Source: an uncultured Treponema sp.
GTDB taxonomy: Bacteria; Spirochaetota; Spirochaetia; Treponematales; Treponemataceae
NCBI RefSeq assembly: GCF_934725225.1
Contig: NZ_CAKVAM010000007.1
Location: 13,035-77,034, forward strand
DNA length: 64,000 nucleotides
Direction: 5' to 3'
Positions within the stretch are counted from its first letter, which is position 1. Each line of letters begins with the position of its first letter. A model generated the notes under the pieces. It was not told where the DNA came from, made no database searches, and saw nothing but the letters and a program-made list of their open reading frames with translations. This document shows, piece after piece, positions 13,649 to 64,000 of the stretch. Made by a program: the position numbers and the translations under genes.

Positions 13649-14734
13649 ATGAAATTGAGTTTTAAGTTTTTGCCGTTGCTTGCTTTTGCAGCTTTTGCGG
13701 GCTTTTCAGCTTCTGCTTTGGAAGCGAAATTTGTAAGCATTGAAGGCAAAGTTGAAATTCTGGAAGGCGGAATGTGGATTCCTGTTGAAGAGGGCGATAT
13801 TATTCAGGAAAAGGGCGCCGTTATTTCAACTGGATTTAAATCGAATGCTGTAGTTTCTGTAAAAGGAACAAATTTTACATTGGGACCGTTGACAAGAATT
13901 ACAATTGAGAACATGGTCGCAATGGAAAACAAGGATTCAACTCAGATTTATATTGATTCAGGCTCGCTCAAAGCAAATGTTTCTTCTTCTGATGGAAGAA
14001 AAGTCGGCTTCAAAGTTCGTTCAGCGGTTGCAACGGCTTCGGTAAGAGGAACGGAATTCAAAGTTACTTCTTCTGGACGCCTTTCTGTTATGCAGGGACT
14101 TGTAAGTTTTGGCGGTCCTGAAGCTTCTTCTGCGGAAGTTGCTAAATCCGAGGATAATTCTACTGACATCGCTCCATCTGAAGAAAGCAATGCAGGAACA
14201 GTTGCTTCTGCAAATGAAACTTCTGACGGAAACGTTGCCGCCGAAGAACATCCAAAATCAACTCCGTTTACTTCTAGCGCAGAAGTTGGAGAAAAAAATG
14301 GAGTTCCAGTTTTTGCAGGCCAGGTCAGCAAGTCTGATGTTATAGCAAGCAGACCTTCAAATCCTCATACAGAAAAAGTTGTGTCAAGCGCAGGAAGTTC
14401 TTTTGGAAGCGAATCTATGGGAATAAATTTAATTTCTGGTGAAGCTAATGCAATTGCCGCAGAGACCGATGCTGGTCATTCATCAACGAGTACTTCAGGA
14501 GATTCAGCTCCTTCGGGAGATTCTTCAAGTTCAGGAAGTTCATCTGGTTCAGGAAGTTCATCTGGTTCAGGAAGTTCTTCCGGTTCAGGAAGTTCTTCCG
14601 GTTCAGGAAGTTCTTCCGGTTCAGGAAGTTCTTCCGGTTCAGGAAGTTCTTCCGGCACAAAACCTGGCACTACTCCTACACCTTCTACTAAAACAACAGG
14701 TGCAGTTAAGATTAATATTAACTGGGGAGATTGA
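13649..14734 (+). CDS. FecR-domain protein with Ser/Gly linker
   Basis: Signal peptide, FecR-like ATASVRGTEF motif, (SGSSSG)7 linker. Confidence 0.75.
   Translation: MKLSFKFLPLLAFAAFAGFSASALEAKFVSIEGKVEILEGGMWIPVEEGDIIQEKGAVISTGFKSNAVVSVKGTNFTLGPLTRITIENMVAMENKDSTQIYIDSGSLKANVSSSDGRKVGFKVRSAVATASVRGTEFKVTSSGRLSVMQGLVSFGGPEASSAEVAKSEDNSTDIAPSEESNAGTVASANETSDGNVAAEEHPKSTPFTSSAEVGEKNGVPVFAGQVSKSDVIASRPSNPHTEKVVSSAGSSFGSESMGINLISGEANAIAAETDAGHSSTSTSGDSAPSGDSSSSGSSSGSGSSSGSGSSSGSGSSSGSGSSSGSGSSSGSGSSSGTKPGTTPTPSTKTTGAVKININWGD
14529..14654 (+). repeat. In-frame 18-bp tandem repeat, 7 copies
   Basis: GTTCAGGAAGTTCWTCYG x7. Confidence 0.95.
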
Positions 14735-32103: not shown

Positions 32104-32224
32104 CCCCAATATTTAAATCATAAGCTGTGCATTTTCTGCCTAAAATAGCGTCAAAAACTGCCGCCTCCCCAAGATTTAAAGCATAAGTTGTGCAGTTTCT
32201 GCCTTAAACAGCGTCAAAAACTGC
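32104..32224 (+). repeat. 63-bp-period tandem duplication containing the leader-site motif
   Basis: 32104-32161 vs 32167-32224: 52/58 identical; each begins CCCCAAKATTTAAANCATAAG. Confidence 0.9.
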
Positions 32225-32325: not shown

Positions 32326-32441
32326 AAGATTTAAACATAAGGAGGCTAAGAGATGAAAAAGACTCTTATCGCGGTCGCAGCGGCTGCCGCACTTACAGCA
32401 ACTTCTGCTTTCGCAGAAATCACATTCGGAGCATGGCTTCG
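32326..32441 (+). repeat. Shared leader of Msp-like genes, copy A
   Basis: 116-bp perfect inverted repeat of 35867-35982; 32337-32442 is identical to 59778-59883. Confidence 0.97.
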
Positions 32442-33573
32442 TTCTGCTCTTATTCCTGTAGCTTATGATGGCGAGGATTACCTTGGAGGACTTACACAGT
32501 CATGGGGCGGAGCAGCGCGTACTGCAGTTCTTGGTGTAAACGGCGTTTCTGAAGACGGAATGGCTGGATTCACATTTGAAATCCGTAACCAGGCTGGCGA
32601 AGGAATCAATATGGGTGACCGCACAGTGGCATGGCTCAAGCCAATTGAGCAGCTCAAGCTTTCTGTTGGTAAGTTTGACGGCGGAGACAACGGATTCAGA
32701 CAGGGAACAGGATTTGGTGTTTGGGACTATGTACGCCCATCTAGAACAACATCTTTGTTCTTCAATGGTGATGACGGAATCATGGATTCTATTGGCGGAG
32801 ACGGCTTCATGGCAGAAATCTTCCCGATTGAAGGCTTCAAAGTTATGGTAAACGTTCCATTCCTTCAGTACAAAAAGGAAGTTCATAACTGGGTTTACGA
32901 CAGTGAAGCAAAAACTTGGAAAGATGATAAAGGAACAGAAGTTGAGTATGTAAAGCACGCTTACGACATCTATAAGAAGACACAGATTGGCGCAGCATAC
33001 ACAATCGACGGTGTTGGAGAATTGAAAGTTCTTTGGACAAATGTAAGCGAAGAAGAAGAAGTTGGCACAAAGAAATATAATGATGTAGGAAATCTTGGAA
33101 TCGCTTTCAATCTTTCTGCTGTAGAAAATCTTAACTTGGCAATTGGCGCTAAGTTCGATATTTCCGACAAAGAAATTGATCCTGATGGCAACAAGGCTTA
33201 CTTTGCAGCAAAGGCTTCTTACAATGTTTCAGACGCTATCACATTCAACATGGTTGGCGGTATAAAACTCTTCAAGAACGATGACTATGATCCAAAATGG
33301 GGAATCGGTGCTGGTGTAGACTATGTAGTTATGGACGGTCTTACAGTTAATGCTGACATCCGCTACATGAGCGAAACAAAAGTTAACGGCAATGGTAGTG
33401 AAGATGATTCACTTTCATTCCTTGTTGCAGCTGCAAAGACTATTGGAAGCAACGCTTCTCTTGGAGTTGGATTTGAAGGAGCAACAAACGGCGGCGGATT
33501 CTCAACATTTGACGCTGCAAAGACAGACGCATTCACATGGTGCGTTCCAGTTATGTTCAACCTTTCATTCTAA
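32353..33573 (+). CDS. Msp-like outer-membrane beta-barrel protein, paralog A
   Basis: Signal peptide MKKTLIAVAAAAALTATSAFA, amphipathic strands, terminal Phe; divergent paralog of B/C/D. Confidence 0.8.
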   Translation: MKKTLIAVAAAAALTATSAFAEITFGAWLRSALIPVAYDGEDYLGGLTQSWGGAARTAVLGVNGVSEDGMAGFTFEIRNQAGEGINMGDRTVAWLKPIEQLKLSVGKFDGGDNGFRQGTGFGVWDYVRPSRTTSLFFNGDDGIMDSIGGDGFMAEIFPIEGFKVMVNVPFLQYKKEVHNWVYDSEAKTWKDDKGTEVEYVKHAYDIYKKTQIGAAYTIDGVGELKVLWTNVSEEEEVGTKKYNDVGNLGIAFNLSAVENLNLAIGAKFDISDKEIDPDGNKAYFAAKASYNVSDAITFNMVGGIKLFKNDDYDPKWGIGAGVDYVVMDGLTVNADIRYMSETKVNGNGSEDDSLSFLVAAAKTIGSNASLGVGFEGATNGGGFSTFDAAKTDAFTWCVPVMFNLSF

Positions 33574-33609
33574 TTCTAGCTGCAATTTGCGTTTGACTTA
33601 GTAATGCAG

Positions 33610-33635
33610 AAGCCTCCCGAAAGGGAGGCTTTTTT
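33610..33635 (+). terminator. Terminator shared by the paralog family
   Basis: AAGCCTCCC-GAAA-GGGAGGCTTTTTT. Confidence 0.9.
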
Positions 33636-33640
33636 GTGTG

Positions 33641-34411
33641 TTATTTCAGTGCGTCTTTTTCCGCGAGAAGAGCTTTTAAGCGAGCTATTTCTTCTGCCTG
33701 CTGGTTAATCAGGCGTTCGTCCTTGGCTTTCTGCATTGCGGCGCCTTCAATTCTGCCTTTTTCCTGAACATCGTATTCATGAAGGTTGTATGCCAAATAT
33801 GAATTTACAAATTCCTGCACTTCTTTAATCTTGTCCACCGTCATGTCGAGCCTCCTTAAAAATTTGTCCGTTGCCTTGCTTCTTTTAAGATACTCCAGAA
33901 ACGCCCGGATTTCAATATCACCGCATTTTTCCCATGCTGCCGCATTAAAGATTATCTTTTGAGAGAAGTCTTCAAGCTGAATGTCTTTGTTTTCCCTGCA
34001 AAATGACTCAAATGTATATATTGGAAGACCGTGTCCCAAGGGATCATCTATGCACAGGAACACAACATAGCTTTTCTTAAGCATTGCATACGAAGCTCCC
34101 TTCAGCAGGCTGTCTGAGTCCAGTATGGACTGATAATAACGCATTCTCTGAGCAATTGCGGCGTAGCTTCCAGACTGCATCTCAATGTCAACCACTTCGT
34201 CTGGAGTTTCCGTGTAGACATCCAGCCTTATGCCCTTTCCGCTGTAAATTGGAGATATTGTCTTCTGCGCCTCAGGAAATTTTATTTCCCTTGCCTCGAT
34301 TTTAAGCAGCCTTCTTATAACCTCGCGGCAAATATCCTTGTTTCTCATTACATAGCTGAACATAAAATCATCTGTGAACCTCAGTTCCTCCACCGGCTTA
34401 ATAAAATACAT
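33641..34411 (-). CDS. Rpn-family PD-(D/E)XK nuclease (PDDEXK_2)
   Basis: FTDDFMF, GIRLDV, DIEMQ and RMRYYQS motifs; AAGGAGG SD before ATG 34411. Confidence 0.9.
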   Translation of the reverse strand: MYFIKPVEELRFTDDFMFSYVMRNKDICREVIRRLLKIEAREIKFPEAQKTISPIYSGKGIRLDVYTETPDEVVDIEMQSGSYAAIAQRMRYYQSILDSDSLLKGASYAMLKKSYVVFLCIDDPLGHGLPIYTFESFCRENKDIQLEDFSQKIIFNAAAWEKCGDIEIRAFLEYLKRSKATDKFLRRLDMTVDKIKEVQEFVNSYLAYNLHEYDVQEKGRIEGAAMQKAKDERLINQQAEEIARLKALLAEKDALK

Positions 34412-34480
34412 AGAGCCTCCTTGCATATTCTATGTATTTTATTGCCGTAAAAAAATATTTTATGCAGACTGTTCTTTTAT

Positions 34481-34626
34481 TTAAACACAAAAAAGCCTCC
34501 CTTTCGGGAGGCTTTCTGCTTGTCCAGCACATCCAGTGCACCGGGCATTCGCGCTACGCGCTGTTTCACCGCTAGTTTGCCATGCAAACTAGCAGAGATA
34601 AAACGAAGCGTGCTTCGTTTTATCGA
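34481..34626 (-). repeat. Modular hairpin 3' element plus terminator downstream of paralog B
   Basis: Hairpins GATAAAACGAAG/CTTCGTTTTATC and GCTAGTTTGC/GCAAACTAGC, then GATGTGCTGGACAAG and the GCCTCCC terminator; modules are shared with the C and D 3' ends. Confidence 0.85.
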
Positions 34627-35955
34627 CTAGAACCAAACGCTTACAGATACTGGGATTGCCCAAACGAAGTCATCAGCTGCGTTAGCTTTGAGTCCGCTTA
34701 CGCCATCACCTTTTTCACCTGGTGTTCCCCATGTGAATCCACAGCCATTTGTTGCGCCCTGGAATCCGATTCCGAGAGAACCGTTGCTTCCAACAGACTT
34801 GTTAACTCCAACGAGGAAGCTGATTGCGCCTTCATCGCCGTCTTTTCCGTATGACTTTATGTCATATGCCTTTTCAGCAGATTTTGCGTTGCTCATGTAG
34901 CTAACATCTGCAGCCAAGCTAAGACCATCCATGATTACATAATCTACACCAGCACCAACAAAGAATACATTGTCAACAAGTTCACCGTCTCTTGCAACAC
35001 AGTCATCCTGATACTGAACATATCCGCCGTCTACAGAGAATTTCATCTGCTCAGAAACCTGGTAAGAAGCGCCAGCTGTGAACGCCATCTTGAGGTAGTC
35101 AGGAGCATAGTCCTTGTCTGCTATACCAAAGCGAGCACCTACTGTTACAGAAAGGTTCTCAACAGCATTAAGATCAAATGCAACTCCAATCTGTCCTGTT
35201 GTCTTTCTTGCTACTTCACCGTCAACATCATTTAAGTTGTAAGTTGGTACTGTGCTTACTTCGTTATCAAGAACCCAGTTTCCGTCATTGTCATACTTGT
35301 TTCCCAATGACCATGATACTGAATCAGCTGTAGCTTTTGTATCTTTATAATCACCGATGTACTGTGCCTTGAATTTACCTACACCTTCAATTGTGTAGCC
35401 AAATCCAACCTGAATGTTCTTGTATACATCTTCAGCCTTTGCATAAGTAGAAGACATTGGAATAACTGCGAATGCGTGGAGTCCTTCGATTGGGTCAGCC
35501 TCTAACATAAGACCGTTCTTTGAAACTCCGTCAAATGTGAGTCCTTCGCCGTCGAATGCCCAGTTGTAAGGTCTGAGCCAGTTCCATGAGCCGTAGCAGA
35601 AGTCGCCGCGGAGTCCGTTTGTAGGTGAGTCGAACTTACCAACAGAGATTTTAACCATGTCAACAGGCTTAACCCAGAGGTATGCATCATCGCCCTGTCC
35701 GAGTCCGCTCTCGAAGTCGTTGTAAACGCCCATTACGAATCCGGTCTTTCCGTCCTCAGAAGTTCCGTTGATGTTGATGCGGGCTGTACGTGCGCCCCAT
35801 CCCCATGAGTTTGCAACGCCAACCATTGCATCTTCACCATTGTGTGCTACTGGCGAAGCAAGGACGCGAAGCCATGCTCCGAATGTGATTTCTGCGAAAG
35901 CAGAAGTTGCTGTAAGTGCGGCAGCCGCTGCGACCGCGATAAGAGTCTTTTTCAT
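34627..35955 (-). CDS. Msp-like outer-membrane beta-barrel protein, paralog B
   Basis: Same leader; close to C outside variable loops; ends VSVWF. Confidence 0.82.
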   Translation of the reverse strand: MKKTLIAVAAAAALTATSAFAEITFGAWLRVLASPVAHNGEDAMVGVANSWGWGARTARININGTSEDGKTGFVMGVYNDFESGLGQGDDAYLWVKPVDMVKISVGKFDSPTNGLRGDFCYGSWNWLRPYNWAFDGEGLTFDGVSKNGLMLEADPIEGLHAFAVIPMSSTYAKAEDVYKNIQVGFGYTIEGVGKFKAQYIGDYKDTKATADSVSWSLGNKYDNDGNWVLDNEVSTVPTYNLNDVDGEVARKTTGQIGVAFDLNAVENLSVTVGARFGIADKDYAPDYLKMAFTAGASYQVSEQMKFSVDGGYVQYQDDCVARDGELVDNVFFVGAGVDYVIMDGLSLAADVSYMSNAKSAEKAYDIKSYGKDGDEGAISFLVGVNKSVGSNGSLGIGFQGATNGCGFTWGTPGEKGDGVSGLKANAADDFVWAIPVSVSVWF

Positions 35956-35982
35956 CTCTTAGCCTCCTTATGTTTAAATCTT
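35867..35982 (-). repeat. Shared leader of Msp-like genes, copy B
   Basis: Perfect inverted copy of 32326-32441. Confidence 0.97.
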
Positions 35983-36022
35983 GGGGTTCCCCAGCGAGAA
36001 TTTCAGAAAAATTCATAGAGAG

Positions 36023-36051
36023 TTGACACCATTGGAGACACCTTTTATATT
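36023..36051 (+). promoter_or_regulatory. sigma70 promoter of the hic remnant, pointing away from paralog B
   Basis: TTGACA-17-TATATT. Confidence 0.7.
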
Positions 36052-36071
36052 GTTTGTAGGGGGATTCTTTT

Positions 36072-36451
36072 ATGTCGAAGTGGGAAAATAAAATAAAAAG
36101 CATTGAAGAATATATGTCGCTTCCATATAGAATGGAAATTGAACCGGATTCAGATGAGGGAGGATTTGTTGTTTCATTTCCTGAGCTTCCCGGATGCATT
36201 TCGTCAGGCGGCGATATTCAGCAAGCTGTGGCAAATGCAAAGGATGCGCAAAAGCATGGCTTGAGGCTGCAATTGAAGACGGAATTTCAATAAACGAACC
36301 TTTGCCTGTTGAAAAATATTCAGGACAATTCAAGCTGCGATTGCCAAAAAGCCTTCACAAACGCCTTGCAGAAGAATCAAAAAGTGAAGGAATAAGCATG
36401 AATCAATACTGTGTATATCTCTTGGCGAAAGGATGTGCATACCAAAACTAA
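36072..36451 (+). pseudogene. hicB: HicB-family antitoxin, frameshifted
   Basis: EGGFVVSFPELPGC is in one frame; AWLEAAIEDG and YSGQFKLRLPKSLH are in another. One base is missing at the A4 run 36250-36253. Confidence 0.85.
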
Positions 36452-36526
36452 ACAAAAAATATCTTTTATATAGAAGAAAAGCGATTGCGTTATTGTTTTG
36501 CCCGGGCGTTTTGGTATATTATGAAA

Positions 36527-36665
36527 CTGTTTGAACTGGATTATCCAGGAAGAATCCTAATCGCCTCCTTGGGACTTGAGCCCGCACATAAGAATAGGAC
36601 TTTAGCTCGGCTACTTTCGGGCAGGATAGTCCCGTTTCAAACTTCAATCTTTAAACTCAAGGGGC
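36527..36665 (+). ncRNA. Candidate bridge/seek-type RNA upstream of the IS110 ORF
   Basis: Extended -10 (TGgTATATT, ending 36520). Nested stems GTTTGAA/TTCAAAC, CTGGA/TCCAG, GGGACT/AGTCCC, GCCCG/CGGGC and TAGC/GCTA. Confidence 0.5.
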
Positions 36666-36669
36666 AAAT

Positions 36670-37911
36670 ATGTACATAGTTGGAATCGACATCGCAAAAA
36701 AATCACATCAGGCGGCAATAATGAAGCCGGACGGAACTCTTGTGGGTAGGTCATTCAGGTTCACAAACACAAAGCAAGGGTTTGAGTTTCTTATGGACAA
36801 GCTTGCGGCGGTAGATTCCAATCTTGAAAATTTTGAATTCGGAATGGAAGCCACGGGGCACTACTGGCTTAACTTGTACACTTGGCTTGCAGACAAGAAC
36901 GCAACAGTTCATGTAATAAATCCGCTCCAGTCAGACGCGCTCCGAAATCTTTACATCAGAAAAACAAAAACAGATTCCGTGGACGCAAAAATAATCGCGC
37001 AGGTAATCAGAATCGGGCAATATTCAGAAACCAAGCTTGCTGATGACCGTATGCTTATGATGCGCGACTTGTGCCGCCAGCGGTTTTTCCTTGTGGACAT
37101 GGTTGCAAATTTAAAGCGCAAAATAATCGTGATGATGGATAGAATTTTCCCGGAATACCAAGGATTTTTTTCAGACACGTTCGGAAAATCTTCTACTGCA
37201 ATCCTCAAGCACTGCACAACCCCGGAAGAAATCACGTTGTTCGGAGAAGACAATCTTGCGCAGCTTCTTCAGGTGGCTTCCAACGGAAAGTTCGGACTAA
37301 AAAAAGCCCAGGAACTTATAAGCCTTGCCCGCAATTCTTTTGCCGCCCGGCTTTCTTCAAAGACACTTTCGCTTCTTGTAAAGCAGATGATGGAGCAGAT
37401 GGAACTTCTTCAAAATCAGATTGAAATCCTTGAAAAGCACATATCGTCGCATTTTAAGTCGTTCGGAACAAAAATTACGCAGATTCCCGGAATTGGACCA
37501 GTTCTTGGAGCTTCTATTCTAAGCGAAATTGGCGACATAAGCCGTTTTGCAAATCCAAAGAAACTGTGCGCTTATGCTGGAATAGACCCTTCGGTAAAGC
37601 AGTCAGGCCAGTTTTTAGGGAACGAAAACCACATGTCCAAGCGCGGTTCCGGCTATCTTCGCCGATGCCTTTGGATGGCTTCATTTGTTTCCGTGAACCA
37701 TTGCCGTGAAATAACGATTGTTTACAAGTCGCAGGTTTCCAAGGGAAAAACGCATTTTCAGTCAATGGGCTTTGTCTGCCACAAGTTGCTTAACATAATC
37801 TACACAGTCTTAAAAAACGACATAGACTACAGCCCGATGCTCTGCATAAATCCTGCCATAACAGCAAGAAGTTCCCGTCGCATAGCAAGAGCCGCCCTAA
37901 AAGCCCGGTAA
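36670..37911 (+). CDS. IS110-family transposase/recombinase (DEDD)
   Basis: GIDIAK, GMEATGHY, KTDSVDA, IPGIG, AYAGIDP, QSG and SKRG motifs; intact 413 aa. Confidence 0.95.
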   Translation: MYIVGIDIAKKSHQAAIMKPDGTLVGRSFRFTNTKQGFEFLMDKLAAVDSNLENFEFGMEATGHYWLNLYTWLADKNATVHVINPLQSDALRNLYIRKTKTDSVDAKIIAQVIRIGQYSETKLADDRMLMMRDLCRQRFFLVDMVANLKRKIIVMMDRIFPEYQGFFSDTFGKSSTAILKHCTTPEEITLFGEDNLAQLLQVASNGKFGLKKAQELISLARNSFAARLSSKTLSLLVKQMMEQMELLQNQIEILEKHISSHFKSFGTKITQIPGIGPVLGASILSEIGDISRFANPKKLCAYAGIDPSVKQSGQFLGNENHMSKRGSGYLRRCLWMASFVSVNHCREITIVYKSQVSKGKTHFQSMGFVCHKLLNIIYTVLKNDIDYSPMLCINPAITARSSRRIARAALKAR

Positions 37912-38136
37912 AAATACAACTGTCGTATTTGAATAGATTGCCGTGTCAAGCACGGCAATGACAGGTATTTATAAAAATGCCAAAGCGGGTTCTTAGGGCG
38001 GCAGCCCTAAGCGTTGCAAGGAAAGGAGGGTGGTATGGAGGGAAGAAACGGCGATTACATCGCTTCGCTTACGAATTAGTTGGTTTTCCTCCCTCCATAG
38101 ACTTTAGCGGCACGGAATGTTAAAATAGTTACATAT

Positions 38137-39204
38137 ATGTACACACGAGATTTGCAGGAAATTCCTCCGTCATTTGTTCAGAATGGGCGGCCGGTGTTCG
38201 GCACGTTCCGGGGGCATCCTAAGCGTTTTGACATCCGCGGAGTTTATAGGCCTTATGGAGTAATTCCGCTTCCGACTTTTATAACAAACCTTCGCATAAA
38301 GAGCCGCCTTATATTTTCGTTTAATATCGGGGAATACATCGGGCGAATCAGTTTTATAGATGCAAAAATTGCCGGATTTTCTGAAGTTGTGTTCTGGAAC
38401 AAAAATACTTCGCAGCGTTTTGCCTACCATTCGCTCATGGGACCAAGAAAAAGACTTATTCCGCACAGCCTTGAAGCGGCTTCAACTTCAAACTACAGCA
38501 AGCGGCGCTACACAAGAATCAGCTGGAACAGAGAGCAGAACAGGCTTTCGGTTATATTCGACTTGAAGGGAGATTCTGTGCGTCCTTCCGCGCGTGGAGC
38601 TTTTTCCGCAGTGTTCAACGATGTTCAGTTTGCAGAACTTACTTCTGTTCGTCCAAATCCTACTTTGAGGCGAAGCTATGCAAGCTACAGTTCTGTTCTT
38701 CCTTTGCACGGCTCTCTTACACTTTCTTACAATAGCGGCGAAACTAAAACCATGTCGGAATCTGACGGAGTTTGCTCGTTCGACATGACGCGCACTTACA
38801 TGAAATTCCGTTCGCATGGAAAATCTGTGCTTGGATTCGGGGAAATTAATGGAAAGAAAATTGCGTTCAAGCTTGCTTCCGAGTCGCATGAAAGCGTGGA
38901 CACGGACAAATACAACTGCAATGTTCTTTTTTACGATGGAAAAGCCACACCGCTTCCGCCTGTTGTAATTTCGCATTATTCAGGCATGGACAAAAAGTGG
39001 GTCATTCAAGACACGGAAAACATGGTTGACCTTACTTTTACGCCTGTTTCAATCTGCGTTAACAATGTGAATGCGTTGATTGTGCGCAGCGTGTACCATA
39101 CAATATACGGCAACTTTGAAGGAACTCTAATTACTGCCAGCGGTGAAAAAGTTTCATTCAAATCTCTTGCAGGAATTTCCGAAAATTACTTGATACGTCT
39201 TTAA
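38137..39204 (+). CDS. DUF2804-like protein
   Basis: C-terminal WVIQD-ENMVDLTFTP...YHTIYGNFEG pattern. Confidence 0.7.
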   Translation: MYTRDLQEIPPSFVQNGRPVFGTFRGHPKRFDIRGVYRPYGVIPLPTFITNLRIKSRLIFSFNIGEYIGRISFIDAKIAGFSEVVFWNKNTSQRFAYHSLMGPRKRLIPHSLEAASTSNYSKRRYTRISWNREQNRLSVIFDLKGDSVRPSARGAFSAVFNDVQFAELTSVRPNPTLRRSYASYSSVLPLHGSLTLSYNSGETKTMSESDGVCSFDMTRTYMKFRSHGKSVLGFGEINGKKIAFKLASESHESVDTDKYNCNVLFYDGKATPLPPVVISHYSGMDKKWVIQDTENMVDLTFTPVSICVNNVNALIVRSVYHTIYGNFEGTLITASGEKVSFKSLAGISENYLIRL

Positions 39205-58569: not shown

Positions 58570-59619
58570 ATGAAAGAAATGCATGAACTGACTCCCGCGG
58601 AAAAATGGGAGCAAGCGACACTGGCAGACAACTTTATCTTTTGCAAAGTTATGACGGCAAACCCTGACTTGTGCAAGGAGCTTCTGGAACTTTTGCTCAA
58701 CATAAAAATTGAGCGGATTGAAATTCCTGTGGCTGAAAGAAGCTTTAAAGTTGACTACGATTCAAAGGGAATCCGGTTTGATGTCTATGTAAAGGACGGA
58801 ACCGGCCGCTGCTTTGATATTGAAATTCAGACTACAAACAGAACAAATCTTGCCAAGCGCGCAAGGTACTACCAAGGGCTTATGGACGTTGACAGCCTTG
58901 TTTCCGGCGCGGATTACAGCGAGCTTAATGAAAGCTACGTGATTTTTCTGTGCATGGAAGACGCTTTTGGAAACGGACTGCCTGTGTATGATTTTCATCA
59001 GGTTTGCAAGCAGAATTCTGACATTTTATTTAACGACGGAACTCACAAAGTCTTCTTCAATGCTTCAAAATATGATAAAATGCCCACGGAAAGCCTAAGG
59101 GAATTCTTTAAATTCCTTAACGGACTGAACGCGGCCTCGGACTTTACAGACCAGCTTGAGCAGAAAGTGAGGTACGCCAAGGCAAATGCGCAATGGAGGC
59201 ATAAGTTTATGACGTGGGAACAGGAAATGCGAATCCAAGTAAAAGAAAAATCCGAACAGCTTGCAAAAGAAATGGCTAAAGATTTAGCAAAAGAAATGTT
59301 TGAAGACAGAGTTAATGCTATGAGGGCAGATATAGAAAAAGAAGCTAAAGAAATGGCAAATGAAATTGCGGAAGATAGAGTTAATGTCATAAGAAAAGAT
59401 ATGGAAAAAGAAGCCAAGGAAATGGCAAAGTCTATGGCAACAGAAATGGCCGAAAAAATGGTGGAAGAAAAAACTGCTGCCATAGCAGAAGAACAGGCAG
59501 CTGAAAAAGTTGAGGAGACTGCAAAAAATATGCTTGCGGAAAAGATTGCGCCGGAAGTGGTTGCAAGGTGCACTGGCCTTTCGCTGGAACAGGTGAAAAA
59601 GCTTGCCAGCGAAGCGTAG
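58570..59619 (+). CDS. Rpn-family PD-(D/E)XK nuclease with repetitive helical tail
   Basis: DNFIFCKVM, GIRFDV, DIEIQ and RARYYQ motifs; AKEM repeats. Confidence 0.92.
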   Translation: MKEMHELTPAEKWEQATLADNFIFCKVMTANPDLCKELLELLLNIKIERIEIPVAERSFKVDYDSKGIRFDVYVKDGTGRCFDIEIQTTNRTNLAKRARYYQGLMDVDSLVSGADYSELNESYVIFLCMEDAFGNGLPVYDFHQVCKQNSDILFNDGTHKVFFNASKYDKMPTESLREFFKFLNGLNAASDFTDQLEQKVRYAKANAQWRHKFMTWEQEMRIQVKEKSEQLAKEMAKDLAKEMFEDRVNAMRADIEKEAKEMANEIAEDRVNVIRKDMEKEAKEMAKSMATEMAEKMVEEKTAAIAEEQAAEKVEETAKNMLAEKIAPEVVARCTGLSLEQVKKLASEA

Positions 59620-59717: not shown

Positions 59718-59746
59718 TTGACTTATAGATTGTCTTGGGGTAGAAT
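59718..59746 (+). promoter_or_regulatory. Strong sigma70 promoter of paralog C (candidate expression site)
   Basis: TTGACT-17-TAGAAT preceded by a T-rich UP-like tract. Confidence 0.85.
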
Positions 59747-59777
59747 AACGATATGATATCGTATGGTATCGCAAAAA

Positions 59778-59883
59778 ATAAGGAGGCTAAGAGATGAAAA
59801 AGACTCTTATCGCGGTCGCAGCGGCTGCCGCACTTACAGCAACTTCTGCTTTCGCAGAAATCACATTCGGAGCATGGCTTCGT
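59778..59883 (+). repeat. Shared leader of Msp-like genes, copy C
   Basis: Identical to 32337-32442; inverted relative to copy B. Confidence 0.97.
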
Positions 59884-61053
59884 GTTCTTGCTTCGCCAGT
59901 AGCTTCAACAGGCGAGGACATCATCGCCGGCGTTGAGAACTCATGGGGATGGGGCGCACGTACAGCCCGCATCAACATCAACGGAACTTCCGAGGACGGA
60001 AAGGCCGGATTCGTAATGGGCGTTTACAACGACTTCGAGAGCGGACTCGGACAGGGCGACGACGCATACCTTTGGGTTAAGCCTGTTGACACTGTAAAAA
60101 TCTCTGTAGGTAAGTTTGACTCACCTACAAATGGACTCCGCGGCGACTTCTGCTACGGCTCATGGAACTGGCTCAGACCTTTCAACTGGGCATTCGACGG
60201 CGAAGGACTTACATTTGACGGAGTTTCAAAGAACGGTCTTATGTTAGAGGCTGATCCAATGGAAGGACTCCACGCATTCGCAGTTATTCCAATGTCTTCT
60301 AGCTATGCAAGCGCAGAGGAAGTTTACCGCAATATTCAGGCTGGCTTCGGATATGCAATCGAGGGCGTTGGTAAGCTCAAGGCTCAGTTCATCGGTGACT
60401 ACAGCTATACTCAGAAAGACGACAAACTTGGAGATTGGTACATCGATGATGATGGTGATGTTGTACGTCATGATACAACTCCTAATGCTGCTGGCAAGAA
60501 AGATGAAGACAAGACAACAGGAAAAATCGGTGTTGCATTCGACCTTACATCAGTTGAAAACCTTTATGTAACAGTTGGCGCACGCTTCGGTATCGCAGAT
60601 AAAGATCTCGCACCTGACTACCTTAAGATGGCATTCACAGCTGGCGCTTCTTATCAGGTTTCTGAGCAGATGAAGTTCTCTGCAGATGGTGGATATGTTC
60701 AGTATCAGGACAAGTTCAATGCTGATGACGACAGCCTCTTCTTTGTAGGAGCAGGTGTAGACTTCGCTGTAATGGACGGACTCAACGCAGTTGCAGATGT
60801 TCGCTATATGAGCAACAAATACGGAAAGAATGGCGATGACGGTGCTATCAGCTTCCTCGTTGGAGTTAACAAGTCTGTATCAAGCAACGGCTCTCTCGGA
60901 ATTGGATTCCAGGGTGCAACAAACGGATGCGGTCTTGTAACAAATGACGGTTCAGGAATTGTTGCAGGTCAGTCTTATACAGCTGGCGAAGCTAATGGTG
61001 ATTCAGACGCATTTGTTTGGGCAATCCCAGTATCTGTAAGCGTTTGGTTCTAG
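59794..61053 (+). CDS. Msp-like outer-membrane beta-barrel protein, paralog C
   Basis: Same leader, terminal Phe, promoter-proximal. Confidence 0.82.
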   Translation: MKKTLIAVAAAAALTATSAFAEITFGAWLRVLASPVASTGEDIIAGVENSWGWGARTARININGTSEDGKAGFVMGVYNDFESGLGQGDDAYLWVKPVDTVKISVGKFDSPTNGLRGDFCYGSWNWLRPFNWAFDGEGLTFDGVSKNGLMLEADPMEGLHAFAVIPMSSSYASAEEVYRNIQAGFGYAIEGVGKLKAQFIGDYSYTQKDDKLGDWYIDDDGDVVRHDTTPNAAGKKDEDKTTGKIGVAFDLTSVENLYVTVGARFGIADKDLAPDYLKMAFTAGASYQVSEQMKFSADGGYVQYQDKFNADDDSLFFVGAGVDFAVMDGLNAVADVRYMSNKYGKNGDDGAISFLVGVNKSVSSNGSLGIGFQGATNGCGLVTNDGSGIVAGQSYTAGEANGDSDAFVWAIPVSVSVWF

Positions 61054-61225: not shown

Positions 61226-61378
61226 ATGAAAATACAAGAATACAATGCTCCCAGTCATTGTCCGGCTTGGTCTACGATGTTTAAAAAAAGCCAATTGATA
61301 ATTTGTTTCAGCTTTATTAAACAGACGCTTCCTTGTTTTAATATTGACCATGTGTTTATTATAGTGTACATTAAAAAT

Positions 61379-61669
61379 ATGTATCAAATTTTTAAAACGG
61401 AAAACTACTTAAAATGGTTCAAGAAGCTGCGCGACAGCACGGCAAAATATGCAATCATCTTAAGAATAGAACGTCTTAAAAACGGCAACTTCGGCGATTC
61501 TAAAAGCGTTGGTGAAAAAGTTTTTGAATTGCGAATTGACACAGGAAAAGGATATAGAGTTTATTTTACAAACAAGGACAAGGAAATTATTATCCTTTTG
61601 GCAGGCGGAAACAAATCCACACAAGAAACTGATATACAGAAGGCTAAGGAATTGGCAAAGGAGGTCTGA
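61379..61669 (+). CDS. RelE/ParE-family toxin (HI1419-type addiction killer)
   Basis: GNFGDSKSVG, ELRIDTGKGYRVYF and LLAGGNKSTQ motifs. Confidence 0.92.
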   Translation: MYQIFKTENYLKWFKKLRDSTAKYAIILRIERLKNGNFGDSKSVGEKVFELRIDTGKGYRVYFTNKDKEIIILLAGGNKSTQETDIQKAKELAKEV

Positions 61670-61672
61670 ATT

Positions 61673-61978
61673 ATGGAAAAAATAAAGCTTACAGCTTACA
61701 ATGCGGCTGAGTTTCTGGACACAGAGAAGCTTCAGAAAGGCTACCTTGACTATGTGGCAAAAGAAGGCACGCCGGAAGAGCTAATCGAAGCAATAAAGAC
61801 AGTCGCAAGGGCAAAAGGAATGTCCAAGACCGCAAAGGAAACAGGAATTTCCCGCAGTGGACTTTACAAAGCCCTGTCTCCGGACGGAAACCCGACAATA
61901 GACACATTGATTAAAATTGCAAAGTCCATAGGGTATAATCTGAACATCTCCTTCTCGCCAATAAAGACAAACTGCTGA
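61673..61978 (+). CDS. HTH antitoxin (HI1420-type addiction antidote)
   Basis: VARAKGMS and LYKALSPDGNPT motifs; GGAGG SD. Confidence 0.92.
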   Translation: MEKIKLTAYNAAEFLDTEKLQKGYLDYVAKEGTPEELIEAIKTVARAKGMSKTAKETGISRSGLYKALSPDGNPTIDTLIKIAKSIGYNLNISFSPIKTNC

Positions 61979-63532: not shown

Positions 63533-64000
63533 CTAGAAACCAACCTGCAATGCTACAGGGATTGCCCATACGAAGTCATCGCCTGCGTTAGCAGAGATTC
63601 CTGCAAGTCCGCAGCCGTTTGTTGCGCCCTGGAAGCCAATTCCGATGTAGCCGTTGCTTGATACGTTCTTTGTAACTCCAACAAGGAAGCTGATTGCTCC
63701 GTCATCCTTGTCTTTTCCGTATCCAATGTTCTTGTAGCGAACATCTGCTGCTGCGTTAAGACCGTCCATGATTACATAGTCAACACCAGCACCGATTCCG
63801 AATGCGTTGTCTTTCTGATCACCAGCTTTTCCAACACATTTGTCCTGATACTGAACATATCCACCAGAAACAGAGACCTTCATAGCGTCAGAAACCTGGT
63901 AAGAAGCGCCAGCTGTGAACTTCATCTTTTCGTTGTCGGTGTTGAATTCCTTGTCTGCGATTCCGAATCTTGCGCCTACAGTTACAAAGAGATTCTCAAC
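63533..64000 (-). CDS. Msp-like outer-membrane protein, paralog D (3' part; 5' end outside window)
   Basis: Open frame from 64000: VENLFVTVGARFGIADK...FTAGASYQVS...FVWAIPVALQVGF, aligning with B and C. Confidence 0.85.
   Translation of the reverse strand, partial: VENLFVTVGARFGIADKEFNTDNEKMKFTAGASYQVSDAMKVSVSGGYVQYQDKCVGKAGDQKDNAFGIGAGVDYVIMDGLNAAADVRYKNIGYGKDKDDGAISFLVGVTKNVSSNGYIGIGFQGATNGCGLAGISANAGDDFVWAIPVALQVGF

Follow-up and report, generated by a model that had tools for sequence, protein, structure and literature searches.

A single-copy IS110-family recombinase with a one-loop bridge-type RNA as a predicted RNA-guided invertase of porin-like genes in Treponema

The window analysed here, a stretch of 64,000 nucleotides from a Treponema genome (G000, contig C7, positions 13035-77034), carries an IS110-family recombinase gene next to a cluster of porin-like paralogs, which raises the question as to whether this enzyme is a passenger insertion sequence (IS) or has been taken over by the host for the switching of surface genes. 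An earlier note on this DNA had proposed such a domesticated invertase, possibly guided by a bridge RNA. This proposal is supported at the sequence level by the single copy of the gene, by its conserved linkage to the porin cluster and by an upstream RNA with guides to the shared leader site. With a probability of about 0.75, the IS110 recombinase together with its one-loop bridge-type RNA constitutes an RNA-guided invertase that selects which of the four porin-like genes comes under the one promoter.

Porin-like paralogs and predicted recombination sites

All four porin-like paralogs of the genome are located on C7 in the order A(+), B(-), C(+), D(-), with an alternating orientation of their sites (A+, B-, C+, D-). 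The features of the cluster are:

32335-32348, minus strand: predicted recombination site A, core 32340-32341
32353-33573, plus strand: porin-like paralog A, predicted silent slot
32341-35967: A/B cassette, in which the two porin genes converge; terminator-like hairpins lie at 33610 and 34493
34627-35955, minus strand: porin-like paralog B, predicted silent slot, adjoining the recombinase
35960-35973, plus strand: predicted recombination site B, TAGCCTC-CT-TATGT, core 35967-35968, spanning the ribosome-binding site (RBS) of B
35968-59781: predicted central invertible segment, about 23.8 kb, with the recombinase at one end and the promoter at the other
59718-59746, plus strand: sigma70-like promoter, TTGACT-17-TAGAAT
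59776-59789, minus strand: predicted recombination site C at the expression slot, core 59781-59782, right half TATTT
59794-61053, plus strand: porin-like paralog C, behind the promoter
63533-64000, minus strand: 3' part of paralog D, whose start lies outside the window at G000:C7:77862
G000:C7:77867-77880: predicted site D, just outside the window

The four paralogs are identical over a stretch of 105-121 bases that starts at the RBS and covers the signal peptide, B and C share 637 nt at 90%, and the identity of C to the other leaders begins 3 bases upstream of the core. A signal peptide, a beta-barrel and a C-terminal aromatic residue (the paralogs end in WF or SF) are all predicted, as expected for outer-membrane porins; the AF2 model of C, built on a 19-row alignment with a pLDDT of 73.7, is mostly beta strand and its Foldseek matches are the general porins OmpT, OmpU and Omp32 at E about 1e-10. 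A promoter scan revealed a strong match (10/12) at C, none in 400 bases at A and D, and two 9/12 matches at B. Exactly one such promoter slot, always with the right half TATTT, was found in 17 of the 23 genomes examined, with none flagged in the other six, and the layout of recombinase, segment and promoter recurs in G172, G218, G232 and G186 with segments of 21-42 kb. Genes of the central segment include the single-copy thyX, pheS, a pgsA-like gene, radA and dcd.

Several additional features accompany the cluster. A hairpin at about 59753-59770, between promoter and RBS of the expression slot, is conserved in all genomes with such a slot and is likely a 5' stabilising stem. A Gp49/HigB-like toxin-antitoxin pair (61226-61978) lies in the C/D cassette and moves with it to the IS110 side in L046, L048 and L052. 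Two PDDEXK_2 genes (33641-34426 and 58570-59619), which bear a Pfam 'transposase' label and which we take to be Rpn-like, represent two of the four genome matches of this family, and in many lineages related genes are again found next to porins. An 18-bp tandem repeat coding for Ser/Gly is present at 14476-14673, and a 63-bp two-copy repeat at 32104-32224, upstream of site A.

The recombinase and its relatives

The region between the leader of B and the end of the recombinase gene contains:

36072-36451, plus strand: decayed hicAB, hicA mostly deleted and hicB frameshifted, optional cargo
36517-36522, plus strand: putative -10 box TATTAT for RNA and recombinase, proposed from sequence
36529-36642, plus strand: predicted one-loop bridge-type RNA, with a closing stem, one guide loop and a plain 3' hairpin
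36561-36569, plus strand: left guide (LTG) TCGCCTCCT, 8/9 to site positions 1-9
36586-36592, plus strand: right guide (RTG) ACATAAG, the complement of site positions 8-14; the handshake positions AA come next
36605-36622, plus strand: hairpin that corresponds in the alignment to the basal stem of the donor-binding loop now lost
36670-37911, plus strand: IS110-family DEDD recombinase, 413 aa, single copy, without IS ends

The product combines a RuvC-like DEDD domain (DEDD_Tnp_IS110, E 1.5e-46) with a Tnp domain carrying the catalytic Ser (Transposase_20, E 9e-24), and the catalytic set D7, E60, D102, D105 and S312-G313 is intact, equivalent to D11/E60/D102/D105/S241 of IS621 in the accessible part of PMC11208158. 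The best PDB matches are ISCro4 and IS621 (the latter at E 7e-23), the named close homologs are mostly from Treponema MAGs (10/12), and the protein is a long-type IS110 enzyme rather than a close relative of Piv. A distance of 688 bp separates its ATG from the outer edge of the B leader repeat (35982), and the ATG falls within the segment between the B and C leaders, and thus the earlier description of an intact DEDD gene some 690 bp from the B leader and inside the candidate invertible segment is accurate. It also holds that this gene is the sole site-specific recombinase candidate of the window, since no serine or tyrosine recombinase was found within these 64 kb, the two PF00239 matches of the genome being located on C4 and C6 and the two PF00589 matches on C2. 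The TATTAT box recurs in G232, G354, G355 and G150. The decayed hicAB, with a loss of about 213 bp in hicA, sits between the B leader and the recombinase gene; it is absent in many relatives, being missing from G081, G203 and G282, while in L048 hicB is intact and accompanied by a hicA-like ORF.

Typical marks of an insertion sequence, namely left and right ends round a core with a donor junction, several copies, and varied contexts or empty sites, are lacking for this recombinase. A count of copies across the genome, which the earlier note had proposed as a check, gave one copy in G000 (tblastn and family search) and no scattered identical copies. In the complete two-contig genome G352, the window-type gene is one of 19 PF01548 matches, and another IS110 accounts for 11 matches with an identical score. 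At E<=1e-60, homologs were found in 29 of 338 genomes of the genus, with one match each, and they are of two kinds: eight mobile-type and 21 window-type (55-100% aa identity), to which G354 and G355 were added from a separate homolog search. Mobile-type elements have, where assembled, the ends CT/CGTATA and ATAGCAGGT/CT and occupy varied genomic contexts; these end motifs occur in 0/22 one-loop loci checked and nowhere in the window.

The flanks of the recombinase are syntenic among relatives. A divergent porin leader lies about 170-900 bp upstream of it in 20 of the 21 clade genomes (the exception being G336), so that the linkage to the paralog cluster, whose conservation had been named as a further check, is retained; because related genomes are not independent, this linkage stands for one origin and not for 20 events. 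DUF2804 follows downstream in 18/21, with cheR/cheB-like genes in its place in L114 (G150:C7) and L209 (G336:C137). In a tree of 45 rows, which takes as its root IS110s of 54% identity and unknown context, 18 window-type rows form one clade (support 99/97), which is sister to the mobile two-loop elements; outgroups of about 28% identity had been tried as root and were replaced by these, since they sat on branches of length 10 and gave no rooting. Sequence comparison further indicates that the recombinase is under purifying selection of housekeeping level, with dN/dS of 0.017-0.026 against five close genomes, as compared to 0.015-0.062 at similar dS for seven neighbour genes against G352. A 30-nt leader pattern was found in 20/338 genomes, 19 of which carry the one-loop recombinase clade; the remaining genome, G202 (89% complete), shows a single site together with a porin truncated to 266 aa.

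One-loop RNA and guide-to-site match

In the predicted fold of 36529-36642 (z -2.7), a closing stem is combined with an internal loop, which bears an inner hairpin, and with a plain hairpin. Across 19 homologs with a mean identity of 55%, invariance is concentrated in the two unpaired loop strands and the adjoining stems, and 10 of 19 consensus pairs exhibit compensatory changes. A covariance model of this RNA matched 5/11 mobile loci at E<=1 (best 2e-5), and in three alignments its loop coincides with the target-binding loop (TBL) and its plain hairpin with the donor-loop base of the mobile bridge RNAs, with 62-66 nt of donor loop replaced by 3-5 nt. From this alignment the RNA appears to be a bridge RNA minus its donor loop. 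By sequence and predicted fold, the loop that is left is built like a TBL, with an LTG, an inner hairpin and an RTG, whose guides would pair with the two strands of a CT-core site. A motif scan and the RNA model (one strong match and one at E 0.81) did not reveal a second, donor-binding loop, although a diverged donor-type RNA could escape both. Rfam gave 0 matches at 35900-38200, and the RNA model gave none in 151 genomes from another family of the order, in a search run with no positive control. On the low-coverage contig L052, the right guide has a 17-base deletion. The premise of the earlier note that IS110 enzymes use bridge RNAs has found its counterpart here in an upstream non-coding RNA with predicted guides for the shared leader site.

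Mobile Treponema elements of an IS110 subfamily (L054-L062, L043, L066, L098) carry clear two-loop bridge RNAs within one closing stem, the two inner hairpins of which look alike in length. Their targets are a Treponema repeat for one group and Shine-Dalgarno (SD)-like sequence for others, and the SD-targeting group is a plausible precursor of the one-loop system. L059 is directly followed by another left end.

The register of the guides was calibrated on nine mobile guide/target pairs with both ends and a parsable loop (five of the nine share one guide, and other pairs were dropped), in which guides match their own insertion sites at 9.3/12 non-core bases as compared to 5.9 when permuted (4/5000); hence covariation of guide and site is seen in the mobile sisters. 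At this register, the guides of the window specify TCGCCTC-CT-TATGT, and against the 14-mer TAGCCTC-CT-TATGT at the porin RBS they match 15/16 at A, B and D and 14/16 at C. Among the 264,853 CT-core 14-mers of G000, only four are within one mismatch of the guide ideal and three of them are the A, B and D sites, while site C belongs to the eight with two mismatches. A perfect match at positions 3-11 is found at ten sites, the four porin leaders and six others, so off-target sites do exist. Without a fixed register, a 15/16 match arises in 1/300 shuffles and 1/400 random windows. The layout is as in IS621, with a 9-nt LTG, a 4-nt core-proximal RTG and a CT core. A REP-like palindrome at 37936 was also considered as a target and does not match the guides; this palindrome (37936-37962) has 27 strand matches genome-wide at <=3 mismatches and is strain-variable just past the recombinase stop.

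Within the clade, CTTA stands at site positions 8-11 in 54 of the 58 site rows that could be used, a count that takes in predicted silent slots; one edge row was dropped, the rows of G150 may repeat a physical site and positions 1-8 were part of the search pattern. Conservation of the left half of the site is not used as evidence, since the sites were found with that pattern and the argument would be circular. The opposite-strand guide TAAG is invariant in 19/19 RNA homologs. Likewise, the first handshake base is A in 19/19 and cannot pair with site position 7 (C), which fits the behaviour of IS621, where cognate pairing at the first handshake position blocks exchange according to the accessible text of PMC11208158, yet this base is also ancestral. 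Guide and site are nearly constant within the clade, so that true covariation is absent, and the distal RTG bases are often mismatched (3-7 of 7 matched, one site 1/7). The RTG AAATAAG corresponds to the promoter-slot half in 5/6 such genomes where the slot was seen, and ACATAAG to the silent-slot half in the subclade of the window; as types with ATTTAAG, ACCTAAG and ATCTAAG match no site fully, distal-RTG covariation was not counted. Exceptions that speak against the invertase reading are G354 and G355 with degenerate sites, G150, which has at least five paralogs and two sites in direct orientation around the recombinase, and G336, where RNA and enzyme are present and no site or porin was found.

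Switching was assessed by comparing assembled strains. The promoter slot is occupied by C in G000, by A-clade genes in G352, G347 and G232, and by a C/B-like gene in G282. Within one species-level group, whose IS110 genes are 98.6-100% identical, the recombinase-side slot holds the A type in L053, the D type in L048 and the B/C types in L049-L052, such that L048 and L049 have identical IS110 genes and different porin types. The recombinase-side gene of L053 is 96% identical to the outer-slot gene of L049 and inverted, with the break within the leader. In G282 the central segment of about 24 kb is inverted relative to both flanks, and in G352 the A-like and D-like genes have exchanged sides; G081 was left out of the order comparison due to an N gap at its promoter slot. 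The two outer slots of G352 (G352:C1, near 2452700 and 2486770) are preceded by one and the same sequence over at least 75 bases, which is not the case in the window. Leader SNPs did not place any crossover inside the identical leader of 105-121 nt, and this long identity suggests from sequence that homologous recombination or conversion acts as an additional process.

In the proposed mechanism, two sites would be brought together by two recombinase dimers that each carry the same loop, with strand exchange at CT, for which the residual donor stem might supply a contact for like-loop synapsis. Recombination between sites in opposite orientation would invert a cassette, or the central segment, or all of these together. 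Since the gene-side half is common to all sites, the products would again be sites and the switch would be reversible, while pairs in the same orientation would excise pheS and thyX, presumably a lethal event given that both are single-copy genes of the segment.

Alternative explanations and related systems

The best surviving alternative, though an unlikely one, is that RecA-dependent homologous recombination within the identical leaders drives inversion and that the IS110 ribonucleoprotein (RNP) is kept for another function, such as anti-SD binding of the porin RBS. Leader identity well beyond the 14-mer, together with the 637 nt shared by B and C, would suit this explanation, as would the hybrid cassettes and chimeric paralogs present among the clusters, which point to homologous exchange, the presence of radA in the segment, and the complementarity of the LTG, largely an anti-SD motif, to the RBS of porin mRNA. 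A precedent exists in the sap locus of Campylobacter fetus, where, as here, one promoter serves paralogs with conserved 5' regions and is moved among them by RecA-dependent inversion over longer homology; we know of no dedicated guided enzyme in that system. However, homologous recombination leaves unexplained the invariant guide TAAG, the retained D/E catalytic motifs and SG loop, and CTTA at predicted silent slots. Moreover, the 5' half of the SD does vary between slots in clusters with a serine recombinase (G102), and the leader of G150, G354 and G355 leaves the usual spacer right after site position 1.

Less probable again is an RNP that recognises the sites and is insufficient for complete recombination, either requiring a second donor-type RNA or a cofactor, or nicking the DNA with host repair completing the exchange. 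By analogy, the target-type nature of the retained loop counts against the invertase reading and would favour this alternative, because TBL-TBL complexes of IS621 and IS622 are described as unstable and unproductive in the accessible text of 10.1101/2025.05.14.653916. Cleaved DNA accumulates with wild-type IS621, as far as the available part of PMC11208158 reports, and identical signal-peptide tracts would suit repair-associated conversion. Against a second RNA stands the lack of another guide-like loop by motif scan and RNA model, with the reservation noted above for diverged RNAs.

That an unlinked serine recombinase or the neighbouring PDDEXK_2 nucleases drive the switch is considered very improbable, although PDDEXK_2 genes recur next to porins and, of the two resolvases of G000, the better one shares 54% identity with the enzyme linked to porins in G007. 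At E<=1e-40, no resolvase of this type was found in 8/20 leader-linked genomes, including G150 (99% complete) and G171 (98%), and the leader of the window lacks the near-symmetric TTTTTTC..TGAAAAAA that spans the start codon in serine-type clusters and is a candidate serine-invertase site there. Such clusters belong to lineages without the one-loop clade, with recombinases at:

G007:C2:195217-195831; L222:12418-13029; L228:8885-9490; L237:5104-5751; L239:5620-6219: serine recombinases at porin clusters

Homologous porins occur in 77/338 genomes, and of 17 clusters sampled from genomes without the one-loop clade, five have a Pfam Resolvase beside the leader (G007, G060, G102, G231, G173) and one (G135) has a tyrosine recombinase/integrase between two convergent porin paralogs (L232:3642-4775). 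In G236 a resolvase lies 1.4 kb from a porin on another contig, and resolvase-porin adjacency was observed by coordinates in G196, G063, G219, G078 and G215, resolvases of the porin-linked type being common (206/338 genomes). For 10/17 clusters, no nearby recombinase was present among the matches listed (motif regex, and Pfam on 23 of 169 ORFs), a point against the invertase reading. Clusters lacking the IS110 gene had been raised earlier as a case that could speak against its role, and many of them carry another recombinase instead.

Least credible is a passenger IS whose target loop matches the RBS owing to a past insertion at such a site, as some mobile sisters do aim their guides at SD-like sequence (L066: LTG CCACCTCCT, RTG AACTAAG), for the adjacent site is intact and not split, ends and donor loop are missing from a single-copy gene under strong purifying selection, its position is fixed across proteins 55-60% identical, and the sole broken copy (G222) occurs in a genome with a single site found. 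The earlier note had treated this explanation as equally live, which is now unlikely in view of the single copy, the linkage in 20/21 genomes and the guides of the upstream RNA to the leader site; the window recombinase is very likely a domesticated IS110.

With the RNA-guided invertase as the preferred reading, the relation to known systems can be considered. Moraxella Piv switches pilin genes, which are surface genes. As described in the accessible part of PMC11187229, Piv is likewise an IS110-family enzyme used by the host for DNA inversion, a role predicted here; it groups with the short IS492/IS621 branch of 315-330 aa, and that part mentions no guide RNA for Piv. 'Piv-family', the term of the earlier note, is therefore apt as an analogy and fails as membership, since the protein of 413 aa (IS621 match at E 7e-23, the branch lengths being taken from the literature) is a long-type IS110 and sister to Treponema mobile elements, and its domestication was likely independent of Piv. 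Unlike Piv, the Treponema locus has four sites, porins and a housekeeping segment of about 24 kb. By description, the omp1 locus of Dichelobacter nodosus, with four linked major outer-membrane protein genes and a proposed site-specific inversion, resembles the Treponema locus, and the accessible text (PMC4196234, citing Moses 1995) mentions neither IS110 nor an RNA guide for it.

With IS621 and IS622/ISCro4, so far as the accessible texts describe them (PMC11208160, PMC11208158, 10.1101/2025.05.14.653916), the Treponema system shares the DEDD and SG catalytic set, an upstream non-coding RNA, a 9-nt left guide, a 4-7-nt right guide, a CT core and a 14-bp site. It differs in that its RNA has a single loop where theirs has two, in the lack of ends and donor and in being a fixed single copy, and its predicted reaction is a reversible joining of like sites. 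From these accessible sources, activity with a single loop is known solely for an engineered donor loop, whereas the Treponema loop is target-type. Among the titles and beginnings of abstracts covered by the literature search, which left most subscription papers outside its coverage, none describes a domesticated or one-loop bridge system, a guide RNA of Piv or this Treponema locus. Somewhat more likely than not, the locus encodes a natural one-loop bridge recombinase that has lost donor loop and IS ends, whose target loop is aimed at the porin RBS, and which would act by target-loop/target-loop synapsis as a reversible, Cre-like RNA-programmed invertase, having displaced the serine/tyrosine invertases of other Treponema porin clusters.

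If true, a former jumping gene would serve a group of Treponema species as an RNA-guided surface switch. This would challenge the rule that self-pairing is limited to donor loops and would provide a model, open to experimental test, of the way in which IS110-type invertases such as Piv locate their sites, as well as a single-guide, like-site recombinase scaffold with an RNA of about 115 nt in 23 natural variants.
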